From Bacilli bacterium (GTDB lineage: Bacteria; Bacillota_I; Bacilli_A; RFN20; CAG-826), in contig JAZLKX010000018.1 in the NCBI GenBank assembly GCA_045597865.1, positions 1 to 62,309 of the forward strand: a DNA stretch of 62,309 bases, read 5' to 3'. Both the position numbers and the translations under genes were made by a program. How positions within the stretch are numbered: position 1 is the stretch's first letter; every line of letters starts with the position of its first letter. Under the pieces are notes generated by a model. It did not search any database. It was not told the origin of the DNA and saw nothing but the letters and a program-made list of their open reading frames with translations. Of this stretch, positions 22,997 to 61,845 are shown piece by piece.

Positions 22997-23112
22997 AAAA
23001 ATCATACCTCCACATTTATATTTAACCATATATTTGTGATTAATAAAAACACAAATGTATGATTTAGTTTTCAAAATAGATAACAAAATCGTATCTTGAA
23101 AACTCTCAACAA

Positions 23113-36631: not shown

Positions 36632-36632
36632 C

Positions 36633-41862: not shown

Positions 41863-41898
41863 ATTCACTTATAATGAACCGACTAATTGTACGTGTAT

Positions 41899-41926: not shown

Positions 41927-42010
41927 GTACATGTGTGTACGTGAATAATTTAAAATGAAAAAAATAATGTGTTTGCAGATCTGAATTTAAACATAGCTTT
42001 TTCGTAATAA

Positions 42011-42521: not shown

Positions 42522-42660
42522 GGCTCCACTACACTCTATTTAGATATAGTTGCAAATTGCTAGTTCAATAAGCTTTTACCTATAACACATATCAAATTAT
42601 TGTATTTTTCATTGGGTTGACTTCGCTAGAGAATAAAGGTGCAAGGAGGAGGAACTTGCA

Positions 42661-43467: not shown

Positions 43468-43563
43468 CTAACTATATAAACACTGAAAGGAGCAGATTCC
43501 CGTTTCTGCTCCTTTCTTTTGTTTTTCGTAAAGGATTTATTAATCCGTATTAAGAAAAACCGA
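43403..43563 (+). repeat. Repeat unit A: gene 3' end + terminator (43486-43520) + conserved hairpin (43521-43560)
   Basis: Near-identical to 46982-47148, partly to 45554-45660. Confidence 0.9.
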
Positions 43564-43590
43564 CAACTTTTTTATATTCCTTTAAAATTA

Positions 43591-43723
43591 ATTCAATATT
43601 TTATAAAAAAGGATAATAAAATTAAATTATTTAAAATAATTTATCGAATATTTTTTTGCATTTTCTTGTAAATATTTTATAAAAACAAAGCAAAAAAACA
43701 TTCAATATTTTATAAAAAAGGAT
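43591..43723 (+). promoter_or_regulatory. 24-bp direct repeat ATTCAATATTTTATAAAAAAGGAT, probable operators
   Basis: Exact copies at 43591-43614 and 43700-43723, partial copy at 43671-43685, upstream of an HTH gene. Confidence 0.6.
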
Positions 43724-43736
43724 TACAATATTGAAT

Positions 43737-44618
43737 ATGAAAACAGTTATCCTTAACTTAAATTATGTATTAGAAAAAATAAAGAAAGATTCAAATCTTT
43801 CTAATTCTTTTATTGCAAAGGATATTTTAAGAGTCGTTCCTTCTCAAGTAACAAATTATCTAAACTATAGTAGTATTTTACCAAAAGAAAAAGGATTGCT
43901 GCTTAACGAATATTTAAAAAACCATCATAATAAGACAATCTATGATTATATATTTACTCTAATTAACGAAGATGGGTTTTATTTTCATGGCTCAAAAAAT
44001 AAAATAATAGGAGAAATTAATCTTAACATTTCAGTAGATACACACGATTTTGGAAAAGGTTTTTATTTAGGAGAAACTTTTCTTCAATCATCAACATGGG
44101 CATCAGATCAATTTAATGACGGAAATATTTACAAATGCAAACTTGATTTAGATGGTCTTGATTGCCTTATCTTAGAAGGAATCGAATGGATCTTGTTTGT
44201 CGGTTTTTGTAGAGGAAAAATAGAAAATATCCCTGAAAACAAAGAGATTTTGAAATATTGCAATGAAATTATTGAACACAAATATGACGTTATAATTGGA
44301 AAAATCGCAGATGATAAAATGGGATTTTCAATGGAATCATTTTTTGCAAATAGAATAACCGACAAAACAGTTTATGAATGCCTTCAAAAATTGAAAATCG
44401 GAAATCAATATTGCATTAAAACCGAAAAAGCAAAAACACATCTTAAATTACTTGAACATTATCATTTAGAAAATTCATTAAAAGAAATCATTGATGAATA
44501 TGGTCATAAATCTAGAGAAACAGCAGCAATCGAAGCCAAAATTCTAATGGACAATGAGGATAATGACGGATTAAAGTTTTCAAAATTAAGAACTCGATAT
44601 GAATACAAAAAACGATAG
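43737..44618 (+). CDS. HTH + DUF3990 protein
   Basis: N-terminal HTH-like region; FHGS, DFGKGFYL, YDVIIGKIADD, GNQYCIKTEKA. Confidence 0.75.
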   Translation: MKTVILNLNYVLEKIKKDSNLSNSFIAKDILRVVPSQVTNYLNYSSILPKEKGLLLNEYLKNHHNKTIYDYIFTLINEDGFYFHGSKNKIIGEINLNISVDTHDFGKGFYLGETFLQSSTWASDQFNDGNIYKCKLDLDGLDCLILEGIEWILFVGFCRGKIENIPENKEILKYCNEIIEHKYDVIIGKIADDKMGFSMESFFANRITDKTVYECLQKLKIGNQYCIKTEKAKTHLKLLEHYHLENSLKEIIDEYGHKSRETAAIEAKILMDNEDNDGLKFSKLRTRYEYKKR

Positions 44619-45537
44619 CTACAATATTTATCTTTGCGAACTTCAAGGCAGAATATTTTATTTAGCCTCTTTTTTAGAATATGATTTGCCAACACTAATA
44701 AAAGTCTATATGAAAAGTAGGATTGCCAAAATGATGGATAATGAATATTCAAGTATTCAAGGAAGAAGTCCGGCTTCATTGCTAGACATATTTATATTAG
44801 AAAATAAAAAGGAACTAAAAAAACAATCTGTCAAATACAATCCAGATGCTGCAGAATGGCTTGGATACTTTTATAAGTATTGGCAATTAAATACAAAAGA
44901 ACCATCAAGTAAAATTGTTGGAAAGTTAAAACCAATTGATGGTCTAAAAAAATACTTTAATTTTCATCAAATGGATTTTGTTCAGGCAATTGATCTATGT
45001 AAAAAAGAATACAATTTAAAAAGAAACGCTCATAGAAAATATGAAATTAAAAAGAATCAAGTTAAAAATAGTGAAATATTAAATCAAAATTCAAAAGAAT
45101 CTTTTGCAAAAACACTTCTAATTAAAGCCTATGGAAGCGAAATATTTAAAGATTTAACAGAAGACTATTCTAGCAAAACTCGCTACGACCTTATTTCAAT
45201 AAATTTAGAAGTTGGAGTAGATATTAAAGTAGTTAATAAATTTGATAACAACCAACTTCTAAATTTATACTTAAGCGAAAATGAAGAAATGTTGTATTCA
45301 AAAATATGTGCAGATAATTCAATATTGTTTATTTTTGTTACATCAAGTGACTATGATGAAATTTATATAAATAGAGAATTAATCAATCTATACAATGAAT
45401 ATTTAAATAAACGAAGTAAATTTGACACTTTATTTATTTATATTGATAGTGTTCTCTACGAAATAAATAAACCATTAGGAATAAGTAAAATTTATTTAGG
45501 CACCACTTTAAATAAAGTAAATAAGCAAGAAAAGTGA
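44599..45537 (+). CDS. DUF3990-associated hypothetical protein
   Basis: Overlaps the DUF3990 gene; AEWLGYFYKYW and FHQMD; possible D..DIK nuclease-like motif in the C-terminal half. Confidence 0.55.
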   Translation: MNTKNDSYNIYLCELQGRIFYLASFLEYDLPTLIKVYMKSRIAKMMDNEYSSIQGRSPASLLDIFILENKKELKKQSVKYNPDAAEWLGYFYKYWQLNTKEPSSKIVGKLKPIDGLKKYFNFHQMDFVQAIDLCKKEYNLKRNAHRKYEIKKNQVKNSEILNQNSKESFAKTLLIKAYGSEIFKDLTEDYSSKTRYDLISINLEVGVDIKVVNKFDNNQLLNLYLSENEEMLYSKICADNSILFIFVTSSDYDEIYINRELINLYNEYLNKRSKFDTLFIYIDSVLYEINKPLGISKIYLGTTLNKVNKQEK

Positions 45538-45553
45538 AGCAAACTATTATTAT

Positions 45554-45660
45554 AGAGTAAATTTATTACACTACTACATACCAAAAGGACGCGACCCAAT
45601 GCGTTCTTTTCTCTTGTTTTTCGAAAAGGATTCCTTATTAATCCATATTAAGAAAAACCG
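45554..45660 (+). repeat. Repeat unit B: eroded gene end + terminator (45583-45610) + hairpin (45616-45658)
   Basis: AGAGTAAAT remnant; GTTTTTCGAAAAGGATT-CCTTATT-AATCCATATTAAGAAAAAC. Confidence 0.8.
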
Positions 45661-45730
45661 GATTTTCATATACCTATAAAACAGGTATTCTAATTACTAT
45701 TGACAAAACTCGGTAGAAAAAGTTTAAAAA

Positions 45731-46168
45731 TCAATCTAATAATTTGAAATGATTAGAATATTCATTCTTTAACACATCATAAATAAACATTGTCTCAGGT
45801 TTATTTTTAGGTAAGTGTGTTTTAGCGTATATTAATAAGATTTCTAATTTGTTTGAAGCATTGTCAATAAAACAAATACAACGGTTGCCAGAAGCTTTAG
45901 TCGAAAGATTGGTTCCCGCTACTCTAAAGTCATATTTAAACAACCAGTATTGCCCTTTATGTTTTAATTCATCAACTTGTTGACTACGTTGAGTTGTGTT
46001 GTTCGGAAGCCTAAGACGTGCTAGGTCAAACTTAATAGATAAATCTGTTTTCTCCCATTGTTTGCCTTTGTAATCTTTTGTAAAACTCTTTAAATAATGT
46101 GACTCAGCATATTTTGAGTAAGTCACACTAAATAAGTTATTAGAGTTTGGCAAAAGATTAGTAAACAT
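45731..46168 (-). CDS. Putative RelE/HigB-like toxin
   Basis: KASGNRCICF...EILLIYAK resembles KSGG.RVIY...LL.IYAK; overlaps the upstream antitoxin gene. Confidence 0.5.
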   Translation of the reverse strand: MFTNLLPNSNNLFSVTYSKYAESHYLKSFTKDYKGKQWEKTDLSIKFDLARLRLPNNTTQRSQQVDELKHKGQYWLFKYDFRVAGTNLSTKASGNRCICFIDNASNKLEILLIYAKTHLPKNKPETMFIYDVLKNEYSNHFKLLD

Positions 46169-46829
46169 TCTCTGGATCCTCTTGGAGAATTAACTCATAT
46201 GGGATGGCCTCATTTTCTCTACATGCCATCCATGGCTTTTGTTTATGTGTAAAGTTAACAATCTCTTGAGTTGTTGATTTAGCCCATTTCTTGCAGATGT
46301 TATCCATCTCTTTCTTTTCTTCATCACTTAATAAGGAAAGATGCTTTGTATCGCATGAGCGGGATAAGGTTAACATTTGAGCACCTTCACTTAATGGATC
46401 AAGATGCATCTCACCACCATCAATCATTTCATCAACAATTTCTAAAAATGGTTCTGCAAGTGGCCCATAATCTTTGCATTTATAAATAACTGAACTCATT
46501 GATTCTAAATTGTTGTAATAGTGATTAAAGTCAGTTAAGTATAAAAGTTTTGCAAGTTTTGTTTTCGGTAATCCTTTAACACCAAACTTGGAAAGAATAT
46601 AAACAAGCATTTCTTTAAATTTATTTGTGTTTTGAACTTCATAATAGAATTCATTAATATGAACTCCAAAAATATTAGCTAGTTGTTCAAGCTGAGTTGT
46701 GCTTAATGATGCAGTACCATTTTCAAACTTCATATAGGTTTGTCTAGTAATGCCCATTTTACTTGCAATATCATCTTGTGAATAACCTAAATTTTTTCTA
46801 ATTTGGAATACATTTGAATTAATGCTCAT
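46158..46829 (-). CDS. XRE-HTH + Panacea (DUF4065/SocA-like) antitoxin
   Basis: HTH SQDDIASKMGITRQTYMKFENG; KTKLAKLLYLTDF...YGP; THKQKPW; GAGGAG RBS. Confidence 0.85.
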   Translation of the reverse strand: MSINSNVFQIRKNLGYSQDDIASKMGITRQTYMKFENGTASLSTTQLEQLANIFGVHINEFYYEVQNTNKFKEMLVYILSKFGVKGLPKTKLAKLLYLTDFNHYYNNLESMSSVIYKCKDYGPLAEPFLEIVDEMIDGGEMHLDPLSEGAQMLTLSRSCDTKHLSLLSDEEKKEMDNICKKWAKSTTQEIVNFTHKQKPWMACRENEAIPYELILQEDPENVY

Positions 46830-46981
46830 TGTTTTACTCCTCAAATTATGTTAATCAATTTTTACTTAACTTTGTTAATATTATATAACATTTGAAAATC
46901 ATTTCAAGTAAGTTTTAAAGATGTATTTTAACCTAAACAAGAAGAAGTATTAGAAACTTCAAAAAAGATTAAATTACATTA

Positions 46982-47148
46982 ATAAAAGTAAACTTATACT
47001 AATAGATATGATGTCCAAGGATCCCTTGAAAGAGTAAATATGTAATCTAACTATATAAACCCTGAAAAGGAGCAGATTCCCGTTTCTGCTTCTTTCTTTT
47101 TTTGTTTTTCATAAAGGATTCCTTACTAATCCGTATTAAGAAAAACCC
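46982..47148 (+). repeat. Repeat unit C: displaced 3' end of the tocopherol-cyclase-like gene + terminator + hairpin (47104-47146)
   Basis: Encodes RYDVQGSLERVNM* versus gene RYDVQGSLERVNL*. Confidence 0.9.
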
Positions 47149-47170
47149 AACCATATATCCTTATATATTA

Positions 47171-47198
47171 AAAGGCACAATCATAATGACTGTGCCCT
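47171..47198 (-). terminator. Terminator of the giant-gene/peptide transcript
   Basis: Minus strand GGCACAGTC-ATTAT-GATTGTGCC-TTTT. Confidence 0.65.
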
Positions 47199-47227
47199 AT
47201 TGTCTCTAATGATATGAGACTTGATAG

Positions 47228-47344
47228 TTAATCCACAATGACTTCTTCTTCTGTCGGATCATAAGTTTGTTCTTGACCAGAAGTACAAATTATATCTTCC
47301 AAAAGAACAACAACTTCGATACTTGGTTTTATATATTTTTCCAT
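47228..47344 (-). CDS. 38-aa peptide MEKYIKPSIEVVVLLEDIICTSGQEQTYDPTEEEVIVD
   Basis: Not in the ORF track; GGAGG RBS right after the stop of the 2857-aa gene; followed by a terminator. Confidence 0.75.
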   Translation of the reverse strand: MEKYIKPSIEVVVLLEDIICTSGQEQTYDPTEEEVIVD

Positions 47345-47357
47345 AATTTGTTCCTCC

Positions 47358-50300
47358 TTATTCTGCTTGAACTCCAAGTTCAACTAACGCTAAGAGAATG
47401 TGATCAAGATTTGGGTCTTTAGCATGATCATCAGCTATTGAATATTTCAACTCATTAAATGATCCTGAAACAACATTACTATAGTCGACCAAATTACCAT
47501 CTTTATCGACAACAACAATTGCAACGGAGTAAACTCTATCAAATTTAGCTGTATCAGTTCCTTTAAACTTAAGAACTAACGATGCTTGATTTTGAATAAG
47601 CTTATCGTCGCCAATCAATTTTGTGTTATAAGATGAATTCCAAAGTTCATCGAATGTCATTGCTTCATCGCTATATCCATATATAAACATAACTGTGTAT
47701 TCATCTGAACCTTGATATTGACTCAATCTTTCGTCTTCGTATTTATATTCATAAGCAATACCAGCATAAATATCTGATACGGTATTATTATCGTGGTATG
47801 TATATGAAACATATCCATAAGCATTTTCTTCCATTGTGCCTGCTGCTTTTCTAAGCGATAATCCCATTAAGGTATCTTCATCTTTTGCAATGAATTTTAC
47901 GTATTGAATGTCGCCTTCTATTTCATCCCACTCAACATAATTAATTCCATCGGAAGAAACAAGAATTTGACATTCAGTATCATTCAATAAGACAATGTCG
48001 GCTTCGACAAATCTCTTATATTCGCCAGCTTCAGCAACAACTACATAACCCTCATCAGTTTGTTTAATTGTTCCATTTTCGTTTACACCATTAATAACAG
48101 CCTCGGTCTTGACATCACTATATTCGTTTTTAACATCAACAGTAAATGTGCCGCTAGTTGTATCATAATTTTCTCTTTCAATTGGTGCATATGTTTCTGG
48201 AGAAGCAATTGTCTTAAAGACTGCTTGATATGTTGCTTCTCCCTTAACTGATACTACTGATGGTGACCAACCAACGAATGCTTTATTGTCACTATTTGGT
48301 GTAGCTCCACTATATTGTGGAATTGAACCATATTCGAATGAGCTTGATTGTAATACAACATCACCATTTTTAAACGTAATAGTATATGATTTAACAGTTT
48401 CTTTAAATACAGCTGTATAAACCGCATCTTCAGTTATAGCAACTACATTTGGAGTCCAACCTACAAATTCATATTCATATTGTGCTGTATCTGGTTTCAC
48501 TGGATCAGAACCATATGATGGAGTTTCGCCATATTGAACTTCGCGTTTATCTTCAACGCCATCAACAATCCATGTTACATAATAGATTCTGTCTTCTTCT
48601 TTAAATTGTGCAGTATAAGTTATATCACCTGTGACAACATCAATTTCAGGATCCCAGCAATTAAATGTATAAACCTTGTAGACTGTAGATGGTTTTGTTG
48701 GGGTTTCGCCATTAAATTCAGGGGTTGTTCCATAATTAACATTAGGGTCTGTTTCTAAGATAGTTCCGTCATAATTTTTCCAAATTACTGTATAACTTCT
48801 AAGTTCTGACGAGAATTGTGCAACATAGGTTACATCACCAGTTACTGAAGAAACTTCTGGAGCCCAACCACTAAAGGTGTAATTGTATTGAGCATCACTT
48901 GCTTTTGTTGGTGTTGTACCATTGTATTCAGGCATGGTTCCATATGGAACATTTGCATCAGTTTCTAATGTAGAATCGCCGTCTTTCCAAGTAACTGTAT
49001 AGCTTCTAAGTTCTGACGAGAATTGTGCAACATAAGTTACATCGCCTGTTACTGAAGAAACTTCTGGTGCCCAACCGGTAAATGTATAGTTATACTGAGC
49101 ATCACTTGCTTTTGTTGGTGTTGTACCATTGTATTCAGGCATGGTTCCATATGGAACATTTGTGTCAATTTCTAAGACAGTATCACCATTTTTCCATGTA
49201 ACTGTATATTTATTTATTTCCCATTTAGCATATAAAGTAACATCTTCGTGCATGTTAAATTTGCCTGTTTCTTGTTTGCCCCAGTCACCAGTAGAAGTGC
49301 CATCTTTTGTAAACCAACCTTTGAATGTATAACCTTCTTTTTTAACATCAGTTGGCAAAGTTATTTCAGAACCGGCTTGATAAGAATCACTACTGCTGCC
49401 ATCACTAATGATCGCATCTTCAATGTTCTCATAAACGAGATTGTACACTTCATATTCAACCTCCCTATCTAACTCATTATATGAAGGACCGTATTTTGCA
49501 ACAATTTCATCATAAGTAGTAATAAAGTCTGCGAACATTTCTGTAGTAACTTTTGTGCCATCTTTACTTTCAACAACTGCATATTGTAATAAAACTTTAT
49601 CATCTTTATTTAAAACAGCATATTCAGTAGATTCAAAGATGTTTTTCCAGTTTGCGATATCTAAATTATCGCCACCCCAGGCATATACAAAGTCAAATAA
49701 TGCATCTGTGATGTTGTCAGTATTGTCTTTATAGCCTATTGTTGATTGACCTGGTACATACTTATATAAGTAGACAAAATCATAATCTCCAATGTTACTT
49801 GTTGCATAGCACTTAACACCAGTATGATTACCGTTAGTAAATCCAAGGAATCTATTACTGTTACTAGCATTTTGAATGTAGAAATAACCTGACTCTGAAT
49901 CCTTAGTGAAATAGAATGTTGAGCCGCTATCATTCCAGGAAGCGGATGTCGAACTGCTATTTGCTAAATACTTGTTAGAAGTTCTACCAGGACAATAAAT
50001 TAAATATCCGCCATCTATAGCTGAAAGTCTAAATTCAGTTTCTGTTGAACTAATCTGGTATGCACTGCTTGATGCATTGCTGCTATTAATAAATGCTCCG
50101 GTTGTGCCAAGTGCATATTGACCATTTACAGTAATCTGACTTGCATCTGTTACTAATTGATATGAACCTTCTCCTGGAATTTCGTAATAAGTAACAATAT
50201 TCAAATCATCAGGTTTATTAACAGTAATACTAAACGAATCTTGAATTGATGTATTGTTTAATGTAACTGTTACGTTATGATTTCCTCTTGTTAATTCTAA

Positions 50301-53300: not shown

Positions 53301-55931
53301 TTCCCCTGCAATAAGCGGTGATTTACTACAAGTTACCTCACCAATTCTAATTGCGTGTTTCTCAGTAGAAGATTTTTGGTCAACTGTAACATAGTTAATT
53401 GTAATGCCTTTCATTCTAAACAAACTGTTACAGCTTACTTCAATTTCAATCGCTCCTGTTGCTTTCTCAAAAGTAAATTCACGATCTGCATTACCTGCAC
53501 CACTAAAGTTTATTGGAGTTTTTTTAATAGAACCTACAGAAACTGTAGTTGATCCGCTTGATGCGGATTTATTGCCTCCACAAACAACTGTAATTCCAGT
53601 AATTTTAACATTAGTAGGGGTTGAAGATGTAAATGTGATGCTTCCTGTTGTAGATTGTCCTAATCTGTGACCATCTGTGTCACCACCCCAACCATTATAT
53701 CCATTGTGTTCCCAATTGAATGAGAAAATTCCGACATCCAAGGTTCCGCTTGTAGATGATTGATTTTTATAAAGATTATCATTTTTATTAGCAGTCCATG
53801 AAGCTGAACCTGATGTTTCTACATCTTCAGTATATGATTTAACTTGATATTGAACATTAAATGTTCCAGTAGCACCTGTTGTTTTATGGGTAACATTAAC
53901 AGTTTGTTGATCTGTTATATATGGATTAACATCAAAATCAACATCGGAAACTGAAACGTTTTGTTCTGTGCCATTCGACATATTGCCTTTGATAGTACCA
54001 GCAAAAACAATGTCTTCACCTAAATATGGTTTTCCGCCAGTATAAGAAACAGTTAATGAATCCATGGTAACTGCTTTAACTTCAATATCTGAAACCACTT
54101 TTGGTGTAGTTGTGGTTAATCCTTGATATGTTGCTGTTACACTAATTTGTGTTGTAGTTGTTGCAACAACATCATTTGAACTAAAGGTGACATCAGATGA
54201 AGCAATGGATTGTACTTTTGCGCCAGAATCCATTGTTCCTACAATTGAAAGACCTGAGAAATCCCAAGAATCTCCAACCCAGTAAGTTTTTTTAGTCATA
54301 TCGCAACCATCTGCAAACGCAATGGAAACGAGTGTATCATTAACAACTGTAACTCCTGTGATTGTTACTGTGAATTCACCATCAGCACATAAATATGTAC
54401 CGGTTGGATTTGATCCAGCTACCAATGCATTCCATGAAATATCATCAGCGGTAATTTCTACATCTTCGTGATCGCCTTCTGACCAACTTGGTGCAAAAGA
54501 GAAACCTTGAGGATTAAATGCATCACCGACATATTGTTTTTCAATGATTGCGCCTGTTGCAGACGCGCTAACACCAGTTATATGTGCAATTTGAGTGGCT
54601 TCAATTGTATAAACGACATCCGCTGATTTGGAACTATCTCCATCTGCGGTTGCAACAAAGGTGATTGTTCCTTCACCTGTGTTGTTTGCTGCAATAGAAA
54701 GTGTTCCATTTTCAAATGTATATGAAATTTCTCCGCTTGTTGCACTAACAATTGGATCACCCCAAGAAAAACCTTGATTTGCGTTAGCAGGTAAAATAGT
54801 AACTCCTGGCAATGTGGCTTCCCCACCCTTTCCAAGAGTGCCCTCTTCATAGTCTAAAACAAATGAAGCAATATCTGCATAATCGACATGCACGTTAAAT
54901 GTTCCTGAAGTGTATGTATTATTTGCATCTTCTGCTTTTGTGATTGTGATTGTTGCATCACCAAGTCCAACGACATGTAATTGATTATTAACGATACTGA
55001 TAACATTCGTGTTTCCAGATGTTAGTGTAAATCCAGAGACTGCTGAACCTCCTGCAGTGACTGTTACAGATTTGTCACTATCACCAAGCTTCATATTTAC
55101 ATCAGCTGCGGTCAATGTCAAAGCAGTTTTTGCTGTCCATTTAGCATATAAAACTTTTGTTCCAGAAATAGTTCCAGTACTAAAATTCCACTTATTTGTA
55201 CAAGCAGCTTCTTCATACCAGCCACCAAATATATAACCACTTACGCTAGGTGCTGTAGGTTCTGCAACTTTTCCGCCTGCCTCAATTGACTGAGTACTAG
55301 GTGCACTACCATGGCCTTGCATATTAAAGGAAACATCGTACTTTGTCACAGCTTTTTCATAAGTTACTGTTATTGCATCACTTGAAGCTAGTTTGTTTGT
55401 GCCAGAGGCGGCTTTACCATTTTGATAAAAAGCAAAATAAGTATAATTAGTGCCTTCAGCAGGAGTCCAAGTTAATGTTTTAGCAGTAGAATTCCATGTA
55501 CCAGCACTGCCACCTGATAAACTAGAAATTGCAGAAGTGCCACCAACAAAACATAATTTGCTTGCATCACTTACTGTTAATGCAGCAAATGTAATAACAA
55601 CACTCTTTATTTTTCCAGGAAATGCAGATGTATTTTTAAAATTGAATTCGCTTCCTGCTGAACTTTGGTTAGTTTTTATTTGCAAAGTGCTCGGATTCCA
55701 TTGGTTAAAACTCCACTCAATATTATTGTGAGTAAAAGAATATGCACTAGTAACATAGCTTGTGGCGCTATTGCTAGAAGTACTTGCGTCTGGTGTAAAT
55801 TTATAAGTTACATCAGCTGCTCTAGTCTCACCAGCAGCTCCTGCATACCCTGCAGCCCCTACTCCTAAGGTCATAACAAAACCTAAGAGTCCTGCGGTTA
55901 ATTTTCTAAGAAAGTGATTGTGTTTTTTCAT
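47358..55931 (-). CDS. Giant (2857 aa) secreted surface protein with bacterial Ig-like and InlB-B/Flg_new repeats
   Basis: Signal peptide ending TRA; G.F.GW B-repeats, VTA.Y..G...DVT Ig-like units, Thr/Val-rich. Confidence 0.85.
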   Translation of the reverse strand: MKKHNHFLRKLTAGLLGFVMTLGVGAAGYAGAAGETRAADVTYKFTPDASTSSNSATSYVTSAYSFTHNNIEWSFNQWNPSTLQIKTNQSSAGSEFNFKNTSAFPGKIKSVVITFAALTVSDASKLCFVGGTSAISSLSGGSAGTWNSTAKTLTWTPAEGTNYTYFAFYQNGKAASGTNKLASSDAITVTYEKAVTKYDVSFNMQGHGSAPSTQSIEAGGKVAEPTAPSVSGYIFGGWYEEAACTNKWNFSTGTISGTKVLYAKWTAKTALTLTAADVNMKLGDSDKSVTVTAGGSAVSGFTLTSGNTNVISIVNNQLHVVGLGDATITITKAEDANNTYTSGTFNVHVDYADIASFVLDYEEGTLGKGGEATLPGVTILPANANQGFSWGDPIVSATSGEISYTFENGTLSIAANNTGEGTITFVATADGDSSKSADVVYTIEATQIAHITGVSASATGAIIEKQYVGDAFNPQGFSFAPSWSEGDHEDVEITADDISWNALVAGSNPTGTYLCADGEFTVTITGVTVVNDTLVSIAFADGCDMTKKTYWVGDSWDFSGLSIVGTMDSGAKVQSIASSDVTFSSNDVVATTTTQISVTATYQGLTTTTPKVVSDIEVKAVTMDSLTVSYTGGKPYLGEDIVFAGTIKGNMSNGTEQNVSVSDVDFDVNPYITDQQTVNVTHKTTGATGTFNVQYQVKSYTEDVETSGSASWTANKNDNLYKNQSSTSGTLDVGIFSFNWEHNGYNGWGGDTDGHRLGQSTTGSITFTSSTPTNVKITGITVVCGGNKSASSGSTTVSVGSIKKTPINFSGAGNADREFTFEKATGAIEIEVSCNSLFRMKGITINYVTVDQKSSTEKHAIRIGEVTCSKSPLIAGETISKGDFKIQVQYDTGTALTSNLVPTSVSPTTLVAGTHDYTITYTGSYNDTVTKVIQLTAQAPAVLESISITKDVGCDDVFTRCETFTHNGIHVIAHYTDSTTYPDVDVTAKANIPAPDDMDKAGTKTINVSYEENEVKKTTSYQITVNPIVSTYLNLSGKDIVGSNGIYTLNCGVENKVTLSFSKDGDEEITVSNPTSFLTYDETTGELTVNSQTTESESGIITFTAGSKTAALTVVVTANPLTEFVATGTPDVSEQFRNDSFELNLSGIEIHGVYADETYYVFYEDDFEWDTTGDHPVGTYKENTKLTVTVNLITLADDSLKSIAFADGCDMTKKSYWVGDSWDFSGLSITGEMNSKETASIVAENVQYSTNAVVATETTSITVTATYQGLTATKEISGIEVKAVTMDSLTINYTGGQPVLGTDFTFAGSITANMSNGKTQSVNLSDVTIGQVNKFITDQQTITVTHKTTGATGTFNVTYKLAQYWETEPIQHHYSYKLVTEDLSDWSGQYLIVYEDDNNSLAFDGSLTAVDSTPNTFEVGIVNNEIVPTDEINGKCFTIAKSSEGKYSIKNAAGYYIGRNASGNGIDGSTTYSSSYDNTITYSNGTFIITGNGGKTLSFNTASNQMKFRYLGSTLIKLYKYVDTPTGGGKVPSLEKHPIRIVDANLVDNTSVLIGDSLTKDDFNISVQYDTSTTPVSEDAKKNKITPTSIQKKIGNTYSNDCTLSAGDNIFKLTYSETYDGVTYTVEKEITVPAAEKTLNSISLSYGDSFKDQFGLNDTFTHEGVIVTANYANGYKSEDVTNSANVSFSSPDMTTAGEKTVTVTYTEGGVSKTATYIITVTAEKDANLVSLTSEDLGTTVNLIDEKSGSFEGYVGNTVSFEIKLINFGDDVDVLEKTAVDGLSFDGSVVNSIYYGEIEVSKVMDDQEYIITVSDGEKDVDVVLSFTAIEDYIESIEVSNYQEEYTVGDDFNYEMTVTATYASGNTRVLEDNEYDVAVLELTRGNHNVTVTLNNTSIQDSFSITVNKPDDLNIVTYYEIPGEGSYQLVTDASQITVNGQYALGTTGAFINSSNASSSAYQISSTETEFRLSAIDGGYLIYCPGRTSNKYLANSSSTSASWNDSGSTFYFTKDSESGYFYIQNASNSNRFLGFTNGNHTGVKCYATSNIGDYDFVYLYKYVPGQSTIGYKDNTDNITDALFDFVYAWGGDNLDIANWKNIFESTEYAVLNKDDKVLLQYAVVESKDGTKVTTEMFADFITTYDEIVAKYGPSYNELDREVEYEVYNLVYENIEDAIISDGSSSDSYQAGSEITLPTDVKKEGYTFKGWFTKDGTSTGDWGKQETGKFNMHEDVTLYAKWEINKYTVTWKNGDTVLEIDTNVPYGTMPEYNGTTPTKASDAQYNYTFTGWAPEVSSVTGDVTYVAQFSSELRSYTVTWKDGDSTLETDANVPYGTMPEYNGTTPTKASDAQYNYTFSGWAPEVSSVTGDVTYVAQFSSELRSYTVIWKNYDGTILETDPNVNYGTTPEFNGETPTKPSTVYKVYTFNCWDPEIDVVTGDITYTAQFKEEDRIYYVTWIVDGVEDKREVQYGETPSYGSDPVKPDTAQYEYEFVGWTPNVVAITEDAVYTAVFKETVKSYTITFKNGDVVLQSSSFEYGSIPQYSGATPNSDNKAFVGWSPSVVSVKGEATYQAVFKTIASPETYAPIERENYDTTSGTFTVDVKNEYSDVKTEAVINGVNENGTIKQTDEGYVVVAEAGEYKRFVEADIVLLNDTECQILVSSDGINYVEWDEIEGDIQYVKFIAKDEDTLMGLSLRKAAGTMEENAYGYVSYTYHDNNTVSDIYAGIAYEYKYEDERLSQYQGSDEYTVMFIYGYSDEAMTFDELWNSSYNTKLIGDDKLIQNQASLVLKFKGTDTAKFDRVYSVAIVVVDKDGNLVDYSNVVSGSFNELKYSIADDHAKDPNLDHILLALVELGVQAE
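48787..49200 (-). repeat. Tandem 207-bp (69-aa) near-identical domain duplication in the giant gene
   Basis: CTTCTAAGTTCTGACGAGAATTGTGCAACATA at 48796 and 49003. Confidence 0.85.
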
Positions 55932-56233
55932 ATTGGGTTTCCTTCTTTCTAATAAAATTTCAAGTTAACTCGCTACTAGATAGCTAGAGGAGAATTATTA
56001 GGTATTAGTCTTAATAACGACAAAAAGTCACTCCGGTAAGATCAATACTTAATAATTCTTTTCAATAGTTCTACCCCCGTACGTATAACTTTGTTGTGTA
56101 TATAATACATATGTGTGTAAAGATACATATGAACCCCCTAACAATATGTCCGATAAAATAACAACTTTTATAAAATAACAAATTTGGCGTGTTTTCAGTT
56201 GCGCCACTACTTAAACTCATCTATAATGTAGAC

Positions 56234-56737
56234 ATGCAAACATTAAAACAATTAAGAAAAGAACGTGGCTTTACACAAGAAGAAATGAGCTCAATTGTCA
56301 ACATTCCTCATCGAACATATCAAAGATATGAAGCAGATGATACAAATGTTGAAATGGAAAAACTTAATGAGCTTATTTCAAAGATTCTAAAATTAAGTGA
56401 AGTTGATGAAGAACACGGAATTCTTTCAATTCCTGAAATTGCAAATAAAATCAAATTCGTATGTGCTAATTACCCACAAGTAAAATGCATCTACTTATTT
56501 GGTAGTTATGCTAGAGGAGAGATGAAAGAAACAAGCGATATAGATCTTTACTATATAGCAGATAATATGAAAGCATTAGATGTTGCAAACCTAGCTTTTG
56601 ATTTAAAGGAAAAACTTCATAAGAATATAGACTTACTCTGTGCTGCTAATATTAGTGATAACGAAAAGTTTATCGATGATATGCTTTATGAAGGTATCAA
56701 GATATATGACAAGAGAAGAAGAAACCAGATTATTTAG
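56234..56737 (+). CDS. XRE-HTH + MNT nucleotidyltransferase antitoxin
   Basis: LKQLRKERGFTQEEM HTH; YLFGSYARG...SDIDL; ATG 6 nt after TATAAT. Confidence 0.85.
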   Translation: MQTLKQLRKERGFTQEEMSSIVNIPHRTYQRYEADDTNVEMEKLNELISKILKLSEVDEEHGILSIPEIANKIKFVCANYPQVKCIYLFGSYARGEMKETSDIDLYYIADNMKALDVANLAFDLKEKLHKNIDLLCAANISDNEKFIDDMLYEGIKIYDKRRRNQII

Positions 56738-57068
56738 GTTTGACAAAATACTTGAATATTGTGATGAAATCATATCAATGATGAAGGATGTCACATATGA
56801 TGAATTTTGTAATTTCTCTATGCTTGCAAAGACAACTATATTTAATCTTGAACAAATAAGCGAACATATAACTAGATTGTCTGATTTTCTTAACAATAAC
56901 TATCCAGATCCAACCTGGAACAAAATAATCGGTTTAAGAATTATCATTGCTCACATCTATTGGAAAATTGATTTTGTAAAAATTTATGAGATAGCAACCG
57001 AAAACGTTAAGCCTTTGAGAGATTCAATACAAAAAATTAAAAACGAACTCTCTAAAAAAAGACCATAA
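56706..57068 (+). CDS. HepT-like (DUF86/HEPN) RNase toxin
   Basis: LEQISE, WNKIIGLRIIIAHIYWKID; overlaps the MNT gene. Confidence 0.85.
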   Translation: MTREEETRLFRFDKILEYCDEIISMMKDVTYDEFCNFSMLAKTTIFNLEQISEHITRLSDFLNNNYPDPTWNKIIGLRIIIAHIYWKIDFVKIYEIATENVKPLRDSIQKIKNELSKKRP

Positions 57069-57368
57069 AAAGAAAAAAAGTCGGCATTTGAGCAATTACT
57101 CTGTCGACTTTTTAAGTGGAAGATAACATGGTTCCAATCACCACGATCACTTCCGACAAATATTATATTACTATTAAGTAAATATAAAAACAAATAAATT
57201 TATTTCATTTCAACTTGTCAGTGCAAAACTGCACCAACAAGTTTTTTAATAATTATTTTATGTGCATTTTATTCTTTTGATTTGTGGTTTCACTACTTTT
57301 AAAAAGTATTGATGAAACCTAATGTTTTTATATTATGAACCCCTTACAATTCAAAAGATTGAGTTTAA

Positions 57369-57421
57369 TTTATGAACCCCCTAAAGTTTATAAATCACTT
57401 TAAACTTGAGAGGTTCATAAA
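57369..57421. repeat. Inverted repeat TTTATGAACC..AAGTTTA / TAAACTT..GGTTCATAAA
   Basis: Directly before ATG 57424; the half-site recurs at 56128 and 57334. Confidence 0.75.
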
Positions 57422-57423
57422 AA

Positions 57424-57825
57424 ATGCACTGGAGATACTCAAAAATAAATCAATATGACTTAGAAGGTCACTACATCAAATCATTTAAATCATGTACGGA
57501 AGCTTCTAAAGAAGTATTCGCGTATCATAGATGTATAGAGAAAGCATCTAAAGGCTTACTTAAATCTGTCGCTGGATACCAATGGAGAAAATTAGACGCT
57601 CAAGCACCTAATGATGATATAGAGCCATTAATTAAACCAAAAGGCACTAATATCAAGAAACCAGTAATCGCTATTAATCTAGAAACAAAAGAAGAGAAAG
57701 AATTCCCTTCTGTCCTTGATTGTGCACACTACTTACATATTGATCCTAAAAACATAAGAGAAACTATTAAAGGAAACCAAACTCAATCTAAAGGTTATAC
57801 TTTCAAATTAAAAGAAGAGGAATAA
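57424..57825 (+). CDS. Tandem NUMOD1/IENR1-type DNA-binding domain protein
   Basis: INQYDLEGHYIKSFKSCTEA...GYQWR and KPVIAIN...EFPSVLDCA...GYTFK; no nuclease domain. Confidence 0.75.
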   Translation: MHWRYSKINQYDLEGHYIKSFKSCTEASKEVFAYHRCIEKASKGLLKSVAGYQWRKLDAQAPNDDIEPLIKPKGTNIKKPVIAINLETKEEKEFPSVLDCAHYLHIDPKNIRETIKGNQTQSKGYTFKLKEEE

Positions 57826-57898
57826 TTCCTCTTCATTTATCTCTTTTCAATCAAGGTTACTTGATTACTTTAACCGTAGGTTGAAAAGACCGAATTTT
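57711..57898 (+). repeat. Repeat unit D: NUMOD1 gene 3' end + terminator + hairpin (57842-57889)
   Basis: Homologous to 59764-59928 and 61671-61845. Confidence 0.9.
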
Positions 57899-58020
57899 TC
57901 ATAATAAAAACGGGCCAAATGCCCGTATTATGTGGGAGCTCGACTTCTTCCCCGCACCAACCTAAGCTGGTGTTCCCTCTTTGCGGTCTAGCAATATTTA
58001 ACATTAAATAAGGCTATTTA

Positions 58021-59031
58021 TCAAGATATTTTATAGTAAGATTTTTTAGCTTTAATAAGAGCGAACTCTTTGATAATGCTTGGAATAAGTTTACTTCTGC
58101 CCTTTGAATCCACTATTTCAGTATCCGATATTGAAATAATTTGTTTGTTGGATTTTAAAGATTTGCTAGTCTTCTTATCATTTGCCACCACTAATACCTT
58201 TCTATAATGTTTCATGTACTCATCCACTAACTTAACAATGTCTTCGTATGTAGCATTATTTTCAGTAAAAAACTTAATTACTTTTTCTTTTGAAACTAAG
58301 GATTCATCATCCATATCATATTCATAGTCAAAACCTAATTCTTGAGTGTTAAAAAACAAGTAAGTGTCTTTTCGAATCATTGCTTCTTCATTTTTACTTA
58401 ACTTTGATATTGCAGGAATAGATATATAAATATTCTTCATAAAGATATTTGGGTTAACCTCTAATATCTGAGATATAAGCATAATATAGTCAAATCTAGC
58501 CCCATAAAGAATATCGTCAGATTTAGAATATCCATTTAAGGTATGAATGCTTATACCAGATAACACCGACAACTGTTTAGTGGTTAATCCTTTTTCATTC
58601 AATAATTTCGATAACAAAGTTTGAGATTTTTGTTTACTTTCAAAATAATTAAATATTTGAGACACATCCATTTCATGATAAAGTGGAAATCTCTCCACTG
58701 CATCTTCTAATGAGAAATACAAAAACAAATAAGAAAAACTTTTTTTGTATTGGAAAAATAAGTTTAAATAAGTCATTGAAATCCAATAAGCTAAATCAGT
58801 GATTCTTACTTCTATTTTTTCTTCATCTGAGATATTGCAAATATCTCTTATAATTTGATCGCTATTATAGTTATCAATAATTGAGTCACTATTCTTTTCT
58901 AGTGAGTTCACTAATTTAGAGGCACAAAGTCTACTTTCAATGCTTTTAGGAGAATACATTTTATCAAAGCCATATTGAAAAATAGATGCTAACAATTCTT
59001 CTAATAAATCTAAATTTCCATAACTAATCAT
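58021..59031 (-). CDS. DUF3990-associated protein with internal HTH
   Basis: AYWISMTY, YHEMD; HTH LTTKQLSVLSGISIHTLNGY; overlaps the DUF3990 gene. Confidence 0.65.
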   Translation of the reverse strand: MISYGNLDLLEELLASIFQYGFDKMYSPKSIESRLCASKLVNSLEKNSDSIIDNYNSDQIIRDICNISDEEKIEVRITDLAYWISMTYLNLFFQYKKSFSYLFLYFSLEDAVERFPLYHEMDVSQIFNYFESKQKSQTLLSKLLNEKGLTTKQLSVLSGISIHTLNGYSKSDDILYGARFDYIMLISQILEVNPNIFMKNIYISIPAISKLSKNEEAMIRKDTYLFFNTQELGFDYEYDMDDESLVSKEKVIKFFTENNATYEDIVKLVDEYMKHYRKVLVVANDKKTSKSLKSNKQIISISDTEIVDSKGRSKLIPSIIKEFALIKAKKSYYKIS

Positions 59032-59683
59032 TTTTGCTCACCAAATCCCTCATAAAGGTTCCTTTCTCTTCATTACAAATTTCTAAAAGTTCTTCATATT
59101 TTAATTTTGCATTATTTATTCGAGTTACATACCTAACATGATATTCTTGACCAACTTCACTACTATTTAGATGTTTAATTAGATCGAACATTGGCTTTGT
59201 TTTAAATGCATACTGAACACCAAGTTCACCAAGAAAATAAATTTCTTCTAATCTTTCAAGTGATATTTTGTTTTCAATGAATGCTCTAGGGAAAGCAAAG
59301 TATGAGTCATCTGCTCTATATCCAATAATTAAGTCATATTGCTCTACATCAATGTAATATTTTGATAAGAATTCAAATGCTCTTTTATTTCTCTTTACAA
59401 AATCATCTGATAAGAATCTAAATTTAAGAAGTATTGCAATCCAATTCAAAGCTGAATATTTGGTTTTATCAGTTAGGTCTAATATCTTTGCATTCTCAGG
59501 AATAGAAATTGAGAAAGTATTTAAATATCCAAAGTTAGATTCTTTACACGCCCATTCTTTTCCTAGTTCTTCATCAATTGCACAATAAAAACATAAACCA
59601 TAATCGTTATGTTTATTACCATAACCAAATACTGGTTTTTTAATCAGTCTTTCAGAGCCGTGATAAACAACAATATTTTTCAT
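59024..59683 (-). CDS. DUF3990 protein
   Basis: VYHGS, NDYGLCFYC, YDLIIGYRADDSYF, LGELGVQY. Confidence 0.8.
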   Translation of the reverse strand: MKNIVVYHGSERLIKKPVFGYGNKHNDYGLCFYCAIDEELGKEWACKESNFGYLNTFSISIPENAKILDLTDKTKYSALNWIAILLKFRFLSDDFVKRNKRAFEFLSKYYIDVEQYDLIIGYRADDSYFAFPRAFIENKISLERLEEIYFLGELGVQYAFKTKPMFDLIKHLNSSEVGQEYHVRYVTRINNAKLKYEELLEICNEEKGTFMRDLVSKND

Positions 59684-59763
59684 GTCTCAATTATAAATCA
59701 TAAAATTATAAAGTTCAATATTATAGTAGTGTTTTTTCACTACTGATTTTATATTATAAGTTT

Positions 59764-59928
59764 ACTACTTCCATATTGATTCTAAAAACATAAGAGAAAC
59801 AATTAAAGGCAACCAAACCCAATCTAAGGGTTATACCTTTAAATTAAAAGAGGAGAATTAATCTCCTTTTTATCTCTTTTCATTCTAGGTTACTAACCTT
59901 TAACCGTAGGATGAAAAGACCGAATTTT
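59764..59928 (+). repeat. Repeat unit E: displaced NUMOD1 3' end + terminator + hairpin (59875-59919)
   Basis: Encodes YFHIDSKNIRETIKGNQTQSKGYTFKLKEEN* with mostly synonymous differences from the gene. Confidence 0.9.
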
Positions 59929-60021
59929 AATCTCGCATATATAGGTTTAATCTCGCAAAAACCATATGAAATTGCGAGAATAACGCCTAATACTTTGACT
60001 TTTTTAAAAAATTAAAAGCCG

Positions 60022-61005
60022 TCAGAAAATGTGTGTTTTCCAAAATAAGTCGCCAGAAAAAGTGTTATTAATAAGGTCTTTAATATTGCTAGTCACTAAT
60101 TTTGCCCATCTTGTTTTCGCATTTTGATTCAATGATGAACGATTAATTATTTCGATAATAATATCTTTTTTATTATCAATGCTATTGATTATATTATCTG
60201 CAGCTTTTTCATCTATACCTACATTAGATGCAAATTTGTAGAAGTCTCTTTTTAATAAAGATTTCTTTTTTCCGTTAAATCTCATTCCAAGTTCTTCAGC
60301 GTCAGTAGTTAAAATAACCTTAGTTGGTAGTAAGTCATAAAATTTAGATAATGATAATTTCCCATCATCATCCATAATAAAAGAAAAGTTTTTTAAATGA
60401 ACATCACTATTTCCTATAACAAAACAGAAATATAAGCATCTAAACAAGTTTAATTTATCAAGAGTAGGATTTTTACTACGATTATCTATTAATTTCATAC
60501 ATTCTTCATAAGAAGAACGATATTTATTTTCTGTTGTGGTTAATGTTGCTTGAGCAAAATCTTCCATATGTATTTTGTTGATTCCATTTCGATCTATACG
60601 TTTAGTAATGTATGCCAATTCTTTTTGCTCATTTATTTCTATCAAAGCATGCGGAACAACTGATAAACCACATTCTTCAGCGATAAGCATTGCAGTATGT
60701 TCAAATTCTGGCAATTGCTTATATTTACTCGTTTGTGGCTTTAAAATGTAACCTGATGGAAAACCAATAATAGTTAATCTTGGTCTTCTTGTTTTTTCTA
60801 AGTCTAGGTGCAATGATAGTTTTTCTTGCACTCCTGCAATTGCACTACTTTTTTCTAATTGAGCGATAGCAAGCTTTTTTATATCTTTGTCATTAATAGA
60901 GATTTCTGGTAAAGATGACGTGCCAAAAAAGTGTTTAATGCAACTTTTATGCCATAAACCTTCTTTAATTTCTTTTCCACAACACTGGCAATATTTCTTT
61001 TCCAT
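60022..61005 (-). CDS. HipA-family kinase (HipT-like)
   Basis: AIAGVQEKLS, YILKP, HMEDF, GNSDVHLKNFS, FYDL; N-terminal CQCC..HKSC. Confidence 0.9.
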   Translation of the reverse strand: MEKKYCQCCGKEIKEGLWHKSCIKHFFGTSSLPEISINDKDIKKLAIAQLEKSSAIAGVQEKLSLHLDLEKTRRPRLTIIGFPSGYILKPQTSKYKQLPEFEHTAMLIAEECGLSVVPHALIEINEQKELAYITKRIDRNGINKIHMEDFAQATLTTTENKYRSSYEECMKLIDNRSKNPTLDKLNLFRCLYFCFVIGNSDVHLKNFSFIMDDDGKLSLSKFYDLLPTKVILTTDAEELGMRFNGKKKSLLKRDFYKFASNVGIDEKAADNIINSIDNKKDIIIEIINRSSLNQNAKTRWAKLVTSNIKDLINNTFSGDLFWKTHIF

Positions 61006-61316
61006 TACTTGACCTCTTTAACCGATACAGCTCCAATAGTGTCATTACCAAGTAATAATAATAACGACATCCTGTCATTTTGATTTAGTTTCCAGTTTTC
61101 CTTAGCAACATCAAGAAGCCATCCTTCCACAATAAGGCCATCAAAAAACGGAAACAAAGTTTTCGAAACAAAAACTTCTTTCTGAAGAGGAAAATTAACC
61201 GATATTGGATGGCCTTTCTCAATAAAGTCTAAAGTGTATTGAAATTCATAATGATCATCAAAGTCAGTTAGAAAACCTGCTAATAAATCTTGAAAATATA
61301 CTTCTGCTCTTCTCAT
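61005..61316 (-). CDS. HipA N-terminal domain protein (HipS-like)
   Basis: AGFL, YEFQY, PISVNFP, LFPFFDGLIVEGW, DTIGAVSV. Confidence 0.88.
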   Translation of the reverse strand: MRRAEVYFQDLLAGFLTDFDDHYEFQYTLDFIEKGHPISVNFPLQKEVFVSKTLFPFFDGLIVEGWLLDVAKENWKLNQNDRMSLLLLLGNDTIGAVSVKEVK

Positions 61317-61318
61317 GT

Positions 61319-61525
61319 CTATTTATTAATTTGTGTTACTGTTAACTCCAAACTAAATAATTTAAGTATCTTATTTAAACTATTTACATTAGGAGAAGAT
61401 GTTCCTTGTTCAATAGCTCTTATTGTTGCAAGTGAAACACCGGAAAGTAACGCAAGTTCCTCTTGTGACATATTATGCTCTCTACGAGCTTTTTTAATAA
61501 TTTGAGAAAAATATAAATCTTTCAT
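61319..61525 (-). CDS. XRE HTH regulator (HipB-like)
   Basis: MSQEELALLSGVSLATIRAIEQG. Confidence 0.88.
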   Translation of the reverse strand: MKDLYFSQIIKKARREHNMSQEELALLSGVSLATIRAIEQGTSSPNVNSLNKILKLFSLELTVTQINK

Positions 61526-61670
61526 GGCAATATTATCTTATTAATTATTATAAATATCAAGAAAATTATATAGAAAAATAGATAATTCTACATTTTCTAA
61601 TACCAATTATATACTTTTTTATATAGTTTGTATCGATTTAATGATGTTTTTTTATTGAATTTATTATTAA

Positions 61671-61845
61671 TGTTTTTGGATGTGCTCACTACTTACATAT
61701 TGATCCTAAAAACATAAGAGAAACTATTAAAGAAAAACAAAGTCAATCTAAAGGATATACCTTCAAATTAAAAGAAGAGGAATTATCCTCTTCTCTTGTC
61801 TCTTTTCAATCAAGGTTACTTGATTACTTTAACCGTAGTTTGAAA
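61671..61845 (+). repeat. Repeat unit F: displaced NUMOD1 3' end + terminator + hairpin (61801-61845) truncated by IS
   Basis: Encodes CAHYLHIDPKNIRETIKEKQSQSKGYTFKLKEEE; hairpin nearly identical to D up to GAAA. Confidence 0.9.

Follow-up and report, generated by a model that had tools for sequence, protein, structure and literature searches.

The window analysed here is a stretch of 62,309 nucleotides that makes up an entire contig (C18) of its source genome, G000 (1,741,905 bases in 58 contigs, 35% G+C; completeness 96.9%, contamination 5.4%). It carries two arrays of toxin-antitoxin (TA) and defence modules, one behind the tocopherol-cyclase-like gene P0001 (array A) and one behind P0002, predicted to encode a NUMOD-domain DNA-binding protein that lacks a nuclease domain (array B). 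A short bulged hairpin stands behind each of these anchor genes and recurs at every module boundary (Table 1). An earlier sequence-only reading of the window had proposed that this hairpin, in six copies of two subfamilies, delimits cassettes of an integron-like or HUH-type accretion system. Here, we describe the structure, distribution and surroundings of the hairpin and weigh what it may be doing.

Reading the sequence directly, we found all six hairpins on the plus strand with the loop lengths claimed earlier, namely 4, 7, 7, 11, 8 and 11 nt. Hairpins of subfamily A follow the pattern GTTTTTC-N5-GGATT-loop-AATCC-RTATTAA-GAAAAAC and those of subfamily B the pattern TCTTTTC-N6-GGTTA-loop-TAACC-GTAGNNT-GAAAAGA. 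A covariance model built from four B copies (R1) uncovered a third subfamily, C, in the sister species G208; it reads GTTTTCTGATGAAGGAC-loop-GACCGTATTATCAGAAAAC, and its inner stem GGAC/GACC holds an internal mismatch. The architecture comprises an outer box of 7-11 bp (GTTTTTC...GAAAAAC in A, TCTTTTC...GAAAAGA in B and GTTTTCT...AGAAAAC in C) with a TTTTC/GAAAA core, a partly unpaired spacer, an inner box of 5 bp (GGWTW/WAWCC) and a loop of free length, all within 40-48 nt. The 3' strand is longer by 1-2 nt, its side of the spacer carrying an extra G (or A) plus TA; this conserved purine, which follows CC, is unpaired as had been reported (G in five copies, A in one). A terminator scan placed a terminator-like site ending 4-8 nt upstream of all six hairpins, in agreement with the earlier claim that each directly follows an intrinsic terminator, and counted 23 such sites in 19.8 kb versus 6.2 +/- 2.9 in shuffles.

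MAFFT was unable to align subfamilies A and B in register, so that a second covariance model (R2) was based on a model-fitted alignment of six sequences from the three subfamilies (A5). In A5, 9 of 17 pairs were altered on both sides, bearing out the covariation of the stems, and standard pairs filled 95.9% of the pair cells versus 79.0% in shuffles (none of 500 shuffles was as high), counts that lean towards the structure because A5 was fitted to it. When partners were slid by 1-3 columns as a control, pairing fell to 37-60%. Folded as RNA, terminator and hairpin together gave z values of -3.4 to -6.6, and the hairpins alone, folded as DNA, gave -4.9 to -10.3 kcal/mol with z values of -1.7 to -5.4.

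To follow the hairpin beyond the window, we ran the earlier consensus as a regular expression on G000 and 401 genomes of the family. It matched just the six sites in the whole of G000 and one of the 401 genomes, which was G000 itself; this strict pattern misses real variants in G208 and G246. The model R1 recovered the A copies at E values of 0.002-0.06, and R2 scored the six copies of G000 at 53-70 bits (E 3e-7 to 1e-10 per genome). Among 37 genomes of the genus, R2 found nine members in three, namely six in G000, two in G208 and one in G246, at 33-73 bits, the next best match at E<=10 in these three genomes scoring 19.8 bits; with stricter filters it had no match in 150 other genomes of the family. 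All nine copies are situated at junctions of variable cargo. The scan of relatives that the sequence-only reading had put forward as a check thus shows that the hairpin is not a general motif behind terminators, and that its occurrences coincide with variable cargo. The three carriers, all bins of 93-97% completeness (93% for G208), form a tight clade, being 84-97% identical at one shared locus versus 66-73% for other members of the genus. A tighter A/B pattern had no match in public viral contigs and matched 18 loci in JGI metagenome contigs, none of the 18 genuine by eye; a blastn search of plasmids with the B unit gave no match. A degenerate form of the consensus matched at least 118 loci in genome contigs, 28 of them with complementary inner stems, and these 28 were judged chance matches because none showed, by eye, a terminator, an extended stem or a CC tail.

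The repeated unit exceeds the hairpin. Internal copies add 15-115 nt of the 3' end of the anchor gene together with a terminator. The sequence-only reading recognized the hairpin and overlooked the anchor-gene fragment in every internal unit, so its statement that the hairpins mark insertion sites at two unrelated genes does not hold in this simple form. The left boundaries of the units are variable: counted back from the stop codon, they lie at 15 and 75 nt in A and at 95-115 nt in B, where copies 2 and 3 are 85-93% identical to the first copy. The right boundaries are fixed, CC following the stem in all eight intact copies. Homology between units, said to end about 10 nt past the hairpin, does so in B (~9 nt, CCGAATTTT), while in A a weaker shared patch extends to ~30 nt. 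The fragments also differ in allele type: that of unit B-2 is similar to a paralog of the NUMOD gene found on contig C1, and A copy 2 has a different terminator that resembles the native one of G208, cassette A1 ending on the right with ~15 nt of the end of P0001 and this G208-type terminator (45583-45610). The cassettes therefore seem derived from different donor strains. Each interval holds one self-contained TA or defence module by Pfam and PADLOC, as had been claimed, and the A1 cargo matches both parts, A and B, of the PADLOC candidate system PDC-M42. Hairpin 6, the last of array B, is truncated within its 3' stem by an ISL3-type insertion sequence (IS), and array B may once have been longer than what is now visible.

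Table 1. Features of arrays A and B and of one further site in the window. HTH, helix-turn-helix; ORF, open reading frame.
Feature	Position	Strand	Evidence
Possible degenerate hairpin relative, not counted as a member	23062..23112	+	R1 17.2 bits, E 0.3; no R2 match; weak evidence
Anchor gene of array A, P0001, 268 aa, tocopherol-cyclase-like	42661..43467	+	ORF; Atlas features 0.97 to Tocopherol_cycl clusters, a lead only
Terminator 43485-43516 and hairpin A-1 43521-43560, loop 4 nt	43485..43560	+	R2 62.1 bits
Cassette A1: DUF3990 protein 43731-44618 and partner 44599-45537	43564..45612	+	Pfam DUF3990; PADLOC PDC-M13B/M42A and M42B
Hairpin A-2, loop 7 nt, unpaired A	45616..45658	+	R2 64.7 bits
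Cassette A2: HTH-SocA/Panacea antitoxin 46158-46844 and 145-aa partner 45731-46168	45731..46844	-	Pfam
Unit A-3: last ~75 nt of P0001 (46982-47055), terminator 47066-47095, hairpin 47104-47146	46982..47146	+	R2 69.9 bits
Anchor gene of array B, P0002, 133 aa, two NUMOD1 and an I-HmuI NUMOD-like domain	57424..57825	+	Pfam; NCBIfam weak; PADLOC HEase C-terminal part
Terminator 57814-57834, hairpin B-1 57842-57889, loop 11 nt, with tail	57814..57898	+	R2 68.7 bits
Cassette B1: DUF3990 protein 59024-59683 and 336-aa HTH protein 58021-59031	58021..59683	-	Pfam; PADLOC PDC-M42A 126 bits
Unit B-2: NUMOD 3' fragment from ~59764, terminator 59847-59871, hairpin 59875-59919, loop 8 nt, with tail	59764..59928	+	R2 60 bits
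Cassette B2: HipB-like HTH 61319-61525, HipA N-terminal domain 61005-61316, HipA C-terminal kinase 60022-61005	60022..61525	-	Pfam
Unit B-3: NUMOD 3' fragment, terminator 61773-61794, hairpin 61801-~61846, 3' stem cut	61681..61846	+	R2 53.4 bits
ISL3-type IS, left end, runs off the contig	61847..62309	+	Zn_ribbon_ISL3 match; same IS continues in C1 and C29

Comparison of empty and filled alleles, in relatives and in metagenome contigs, revealed presence and absence of cassettes at the hairpin boundaries. In G208, the ortholog of P0001 (98% identical in amino acids) is followed by a plain terminator and then by a giant surface-protein gene in convergent orientation; hairpin and cassettes are both absent. 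At a third locus, C, a conserved lipoprotein-type gene has the hairpin ~90 nt upstream in G208 and G246, whose sequences, 97% identical as far as 6 nt beyond the hairpin, are unrelated from there on; homology at this locus decays within ~6-15 nt. The cargo here is a MazE/ParE-YafQ pair in G208, with the array-A anchor gene next in line, and an MNT-like gene with a different gene block in G246. The corresponding position in G000 is that of the possible degenerate relative in Table 1; homology of G000 to G208 breaks off at 23065, ~20 nt short of the hairpin position, where G000 has another, weaker hairpin instead. The second hairpin of G208 belongs to a B unit (NUMOD fragment, terminator and hairpin, 89% identical) at a locus without a NUMOD gene, where a 204-aa gene and a PifA-like KAP NTPase of 801 aa come next, indicating that the unit moves to non-homologous places.

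Metagenome contigs from four runs (X1, X5, X9 and X10; four studies, animal gut or faeces by record) were compared over positions 42310-62309. All 12 listed runs contained at most 0.14 of the sampled words, and 4 of the 12 were compared, as assembled contigs throughout; such contigs attest existing arrangements rather than frequencies or circles, and the uncovered parts in X5, X9 and X10 are uninformative. Contigs of X1, X5 and X9, from three studies, jump from hairpin 1 (43537) to hairpin 2 (45635), placing A2 directly after the anchor hairpin with A1 absent. The X5 contig (2552 nt) spans 42567-43537 and 45635-46917, with more than 255 nt on either side of the joint. In X1, one contig leads from 43561 to 47169 across 15 letters of other sequence and so lacks both A cassettes, and an X9 contig of 11.7 kb carries the NUMOD gene and a B hairpin without B1 or B2. 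The summed contig depth in X1 was 270-437 over P0001 versus 4-16 over the cassettes, and contig ends tended to fall at hairpins, for example at 45640 and, in X10, at 57899. Together, these data show that cassettes are gained and lost at the hairpins, and they support the view of the hairpins as boundaries of TA and defence modules that are mobile or variable.

We interpret the hairpins as the folded recombination sites of a small, lineage-restricted, integron-like cassette system that is served in trans, a reading to which we give about an even chance. A cassette would consist of one TA or defence module plus a right-end unit made of anchor-gene remnant, terminator and hairpin. Its point of entry and exit would be constant, a few bases 3' of a hairpin already in place and in the region of the conserved ...GAAAA(R)(A)CC tail, and arrays would grow behind the anchor gene with all sites co-oriented; a circle of cargo, gene fragment, terminator and hairpin that integrated at a resident hairpin would yield the observed order. 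The site would be read in folded form, as a single-stranded DNA (ssDNA) hairpin or a cruciform, by an enzyme acting in trans. Placement at cargo junctions only, compensatory changes behind three unrelated flanks and loops of 4-11 nt argue for a selected, folded site at the DNA level with a role in moving cargo, and variable loops combined with covarying stems favour recognition of the folded form. In addition, the anchor-gene fragments inside the units suggest a route by which cassettes may arise: an older cassette, consisting of anchor gene, terminator and hairpin, would lose most of the gene to new cargo and keep the 3' part that bears the site.

Several points weigh against this interpretation. 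The sample is small, nine sites in a single tight clade. Neither a circular cassette nor a hybrid site was seen among the contigs, the only form in which the sequencing runs were available. The ssDNA folding energies are modest, and two of eight copies were matched by 11-12 of 200 shuffles. A co-occurring tyrosine recombinase or HUH/Y1 transposase, which the sequence-only reading had suggested looking for, did not turn up, as no recombinase is linked in cis to the hairpins in G000, G208 or G246, and the tyrosine recombinases common to these genomes are XerC- and XerD-like only. A loose pattern for dif gave 202 noisy matches, among which visual selection left one plausible candidate, a 28-mer (GGTTAACATAA TAGCCA TTATGCGAAGT) at G000:C25:292251-292278, within 4 kb of the XerD-like gene; by eye, it has no likeness to the hairpins. 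Furthermore, each array contains only the hairpin subfamily and gene fragment that go with its own anchor gene, no A cassette being present in the B array, exactly as homology-dependent exchange would predict, and every observed gain or loss could also come from RecA recombination between direct repeats of 50-190 nt.

Such recombination is the strongest rival, and we consider it rather unlikely. It takes the repeats as passive, strains exchanging cassettes by transformation or other transfer followed by RecA recombination, of Campbell type or by double crossover, and losing them by deletion from repeat to repeat, with the hairpin kept for another role, for example as a boundary or insulator by the terminator. 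The anchor-gene fragment in every internal unit, 15-115 nt long and 85-93% identical between copies, keeps plain homologous recombination a live alternative, and the variable left boundaries and the failure to find a dedicated recombinase fit it as well. However, passive repeats leave unexplained why the same bulged architecture was kept through compensatory changes in three subfamilies behind unrelated flanks, why the hairpin is restricted to cargo junctions, and why the right breakpoints fall within ~6-15 nt of the hairpin at all three loci. The A-1 and A-2 copies share little past the ~50-nt hairpin, yet cassette A1 is the polymorphic one, and the B unit of G208 stands where NUMOD homology is lacking. 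No consistent promoter was found in or after the hairpins (72 promoter-like sites versus 105 in shuffles), and six of the seven cargos are transcribed towards the hairpin. By the same observations the arrangement differs from cassettes of the PeSL type, in which the repeat joins a terminator to a promoter for the next module, although a terminator does precede all six hairpins.

CTX-phage attP and the pdif modules of Acinetobacter plasmids are XerC/XerD substrates, and the hairpins could be a disguised form of such a substrate. The arrays would then consist of Xer-dependent modules of the type of dif modules or integrative mobile elements exploiting Xer (IMEX), a special case of the interpretation proposed above that we regard as improbable. 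The hairpins are direct and chromosomal and lie behind terminators, unlike the inverted pairs of pdif modules, no dif-like 11-6-11 sequence was seen in them and by eye they have no sequence likeness to the dif-like candidate on C25. Their inner box is just 5 bp, the distance between the arms in the duplex varies by 7 nt, and the 34 other genomes of the genus presumably have Xer, yet have no hairpins. On the other side, XerC-like and XerD-like proteins are the sole tyrosine recombinases found in all three carriers, the two-box geometry suits the core site of a tyrosine recombinase, and dif modules, as described in PMC6449649 and PMC13141974, are likewise small TA or accessory modules with short sites and no recombinase of their own, moved by the host enzyme. 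The XerD-like and XerC-like proteins of G000 scored 316.8 and 318.1 bits, just below the equivalog cut-offs and above that of subfamily NF001399; their counterparts in G208 and G246 are assigned provisionally, from like PF00589 scores.

The window itself holds no recombinase, as had been noted, and no PF00589 locus lies on it; the carriers have six such loci in G000 and three each in G208 and G246. Against the integron-integrase model TIGR02249, three proteins of G000 and G208 reached 139, 120 and 102 bits, with a cut-off of 265. Serine recombinases number two in G000, none in G208 and several in G246. Candidates for the enzyme are the host XerC/XerD-like pair and, the carriers being incomplete bins, a recombinase on an unbinned plasmid, phage or integrative and conjugative element (ICE). 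P0001, which had no Pfam or NCBIfam match, was considered as an enzyme of the system and led nowhere, being tocopherol-cyclase-like by Atlas features only. The tyrosine recombinases of G208 are two Xer-like proteins and one unrelated invertase-like gene, the integrase P0003, which lies 620 nt upstream of the B unit. It was nevertheless rejected as the cassette recombinase, since its orthologs in G084 (94%) and G232 (71%) have no hairpin nearby and G000 and G246 lack it, the best match in G000 being 32% identical.

The 301-aa P0003 and its orthologs adjoin a segment of ~2.5 kb between 30-nt inverted repeats that holds pentapeptide-repeat and ATP-grasp genes. The inverted repeats lie at 7405-7434 and 9895-9924 of L146 (G084:C6), and the arrangement was also noted at L147 (G232) and at L136 (G208:C34), positions 1-70. 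With ThsA-Macro and Fic/DOC genes nearby, this looks like an invertible segment in a defence island.

Decidedly improbable, in our judgement, is transposition of ssDNA by an HUH enzyme or rolling-circle capture (IS200/IS605, repetitive extragenic palindromes (REP) with their RAYT transposases, IS91 or relaxase-like), with a nick a few bases 3' of the hairpin foot and the DNA between successive nick sites travelling as one piece. The bulged, imperfect hairpin in a single orientation, placed just behind another stem-loop and with a conserved tail 3' of its foot (CCG..TTTT), would suit such an enzyme, and a moved piece made of cargo, the next hairpin and the DNA preceding it fits the anatomy of the cassettes. 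IS200/IS605, palindrome-associated transposable elements (PATE) and REP/RAYT likewise have subterminal imperfect hairpins read as ssDNA, a boundary a few nt from the foot and unpaired GTAG/GTA-like letters. Nonetheless, Y1_Tnp (PF01797) is absent from G000 and G208 (three loci in G246), Rep_trans and Y2_Tnp were found in none of the three carriers, the control for Y2_Tnp being silent, and the cassettes have no conserved 5' end beyond ATTTT. Whole TA operons as cargo, and nine copies confined to cargo junctions, also set the hairpin apart from these elements.

The sequence-only reading had left room for either folded ssDNA or RNA; a folded DNA form is favoured, and RNA is the less likely of the two. 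That the hairpin is a structured RNA or transcription signal (a processing site, a second terminator or a small RNA) which stands between modules by chance is very improbable: the folds are stable with the terminator included and the covariation is equally compatible with RNA, but on its own strand the hairpin comes straight after a terminator that looks efficient, on the other strand it is situated past the terminator of the cargo, no T-run abuts the stem, no Rfam family matched even at E<=5, and it occurs at cargo junctions only. Its position behind terminators, often between convergent ones, and the absence of an Rfam match give a context that is not that of an RNA.

The integron-like interpretation rests on a comparison with attC sites, whose R''/R' boxes read RYYYAAC...GTTRRRY and which are longer than the 40-48 nt of the hairpins described here. 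The attC layout is missing from the hairpins, as had been pointed out before, their boxes being of the TTTTC/GAAAA type. The likeness to integrons and to clusters of attC sites lacking integron-integrases (CALIN) lies in co-oriented, imperfectly palindromic sites between cassettes, in an outer and an inner paired box separated by an unpaired spacer, with additional bases on one strand and no set loop length, in cassettes that carry TA and defence genes, and in gain and loss at the sites. The differences are that no IntI was found here, that the cassettes hold two or three genes with their own promoters and terminators, and that the site brings with it a terminator and a piece of the anchor gene. 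Given boxes off the consensus, a shorter hairpin and no IntI match among the proteins scored, we place the system beside integrons and CALIN, as a variant resembling integrons, rather than within either group. Recognition of attC as a folded bottom strand with extrahelical bases is described in PMC3053210; the bulge here is a single extra G/A plus TA, versus the T-N6-G given for attC. Arrays standing without an integrase are the CALIN of PMC4889954, a survey that reports no complete integrons in Firmicutes, Tenericutes or Actinobacteria. Protein relatives hint that the present host is a member of Bacillota.

Tandem islands at the 3' end of a gene also occur outside integrons. Composites of the staphylococcal cassette chromosome (SCC) and pseudo-SCC at rlmH, and the accretion of ICEs and cis-mobilizable elements (CIME) at fda in Streptococcus thermophilus, are recombinase-less islands of this kind, bounded by direct repeats that include the 3' end of the target gene and thought to be moved in trans, and such repeats occur here as well. 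In SCC and CIME, however, the repeats are short identical cores read as duplex by a known serine or tyrosine recombinase, unlike a folded hairpin past a terminator; the gene fragments here have variable left ends, and G208 has no cognate recombinase, possessing no serine recombinase and only the Xer-like proteins and P0003.

Integron-like filing of genes has been thought missing from Gram-positive-type lineages, and the birth of attC cassettes is an open question. In the arrays described here, a hairpin of another kind keeps defence and TA modules in order, with remnants of its previous hosts still readable and with gain and loss at the strain level in gut metagenomes. That the integron principle was invented a second time, independently, among low-GC gut bacteria, with an attC-like but unrelated hairpin as a portable site for filing TA and defence operons in series after an anchor gene and a recombinase in trans (host Xer or other), we regard as doubtful, though possible. 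If so, the fragments in the units would be a visible record of new cassettes made from old. If recombination at the hairpins is site-specific, the arrays would serve as a small, testable model for how cassettes are captured and formed, and R2 as a search image for similar systems; if only RecA exchange is at work, they would still be a clean case of short structured repeats that organise defence islands.

The neighbourhood of the arrays showed further features. Upstream of P0001, at 42044-42521 on the minus strand, lie an 83-aa HTH gene and a short ORF that looks, by eye, like a nucleotidyltransferase remnant resembling the MNT-like cargo of G246; MazE/ParE occupies this place in G208. Positions 22894-42533, between the lipoprotein-type gene and P0001, are taken up by surface-protein genes of very large size (~20 kb; ORFs of 1122-1178 aa and others), a block absent from the G208 locus, where the two genes are 1 kb apart. 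Two direct copies of CATTCAATATTTTATAAAAAAGGAT at 43564-43730, upstream of the DUF3990 gene of A1, are probably its operator and promoter region.

In array B, a G+C-rich structured stretch (57935-58000) separates hairpin B-1 from the 3' end of the B1 cargo and precedes the terminator of that cargo (57910-57926, minus strand); its sole Rfam match was a weak one to Bp1_162 (E 1.6). The continuation of the array past the ISL3-type IS was sought at the right ends of this IS in C29 and C1, which have unrelated flanks and no recombinase. ISL3-type IS ends were seen at NUMOD loci three times: in hairpin 6, at the NUMOD paralog remnant on C1 (G000:C1:116849-117318, where the IS is fused to the remnant and no hairpin is present), and in an X9 contig after the NUMOD stop codon, with a loose end at 57823. 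An MNT/HepT pair (56189-57068) immediately precedes the NUMOD gene and is missing from the 11.7-kb X9 contig, 133 other letters standing in its place (joint 56116 to 57412). Direct repeats of TATGAACCCCCTAA flank this pair at ~56131 and ~57377 (also ~57340); the one upstream of the NUMOD start codon is half of an inverted repeat, ATGAACC...GGTTCAT, and may be an operator.

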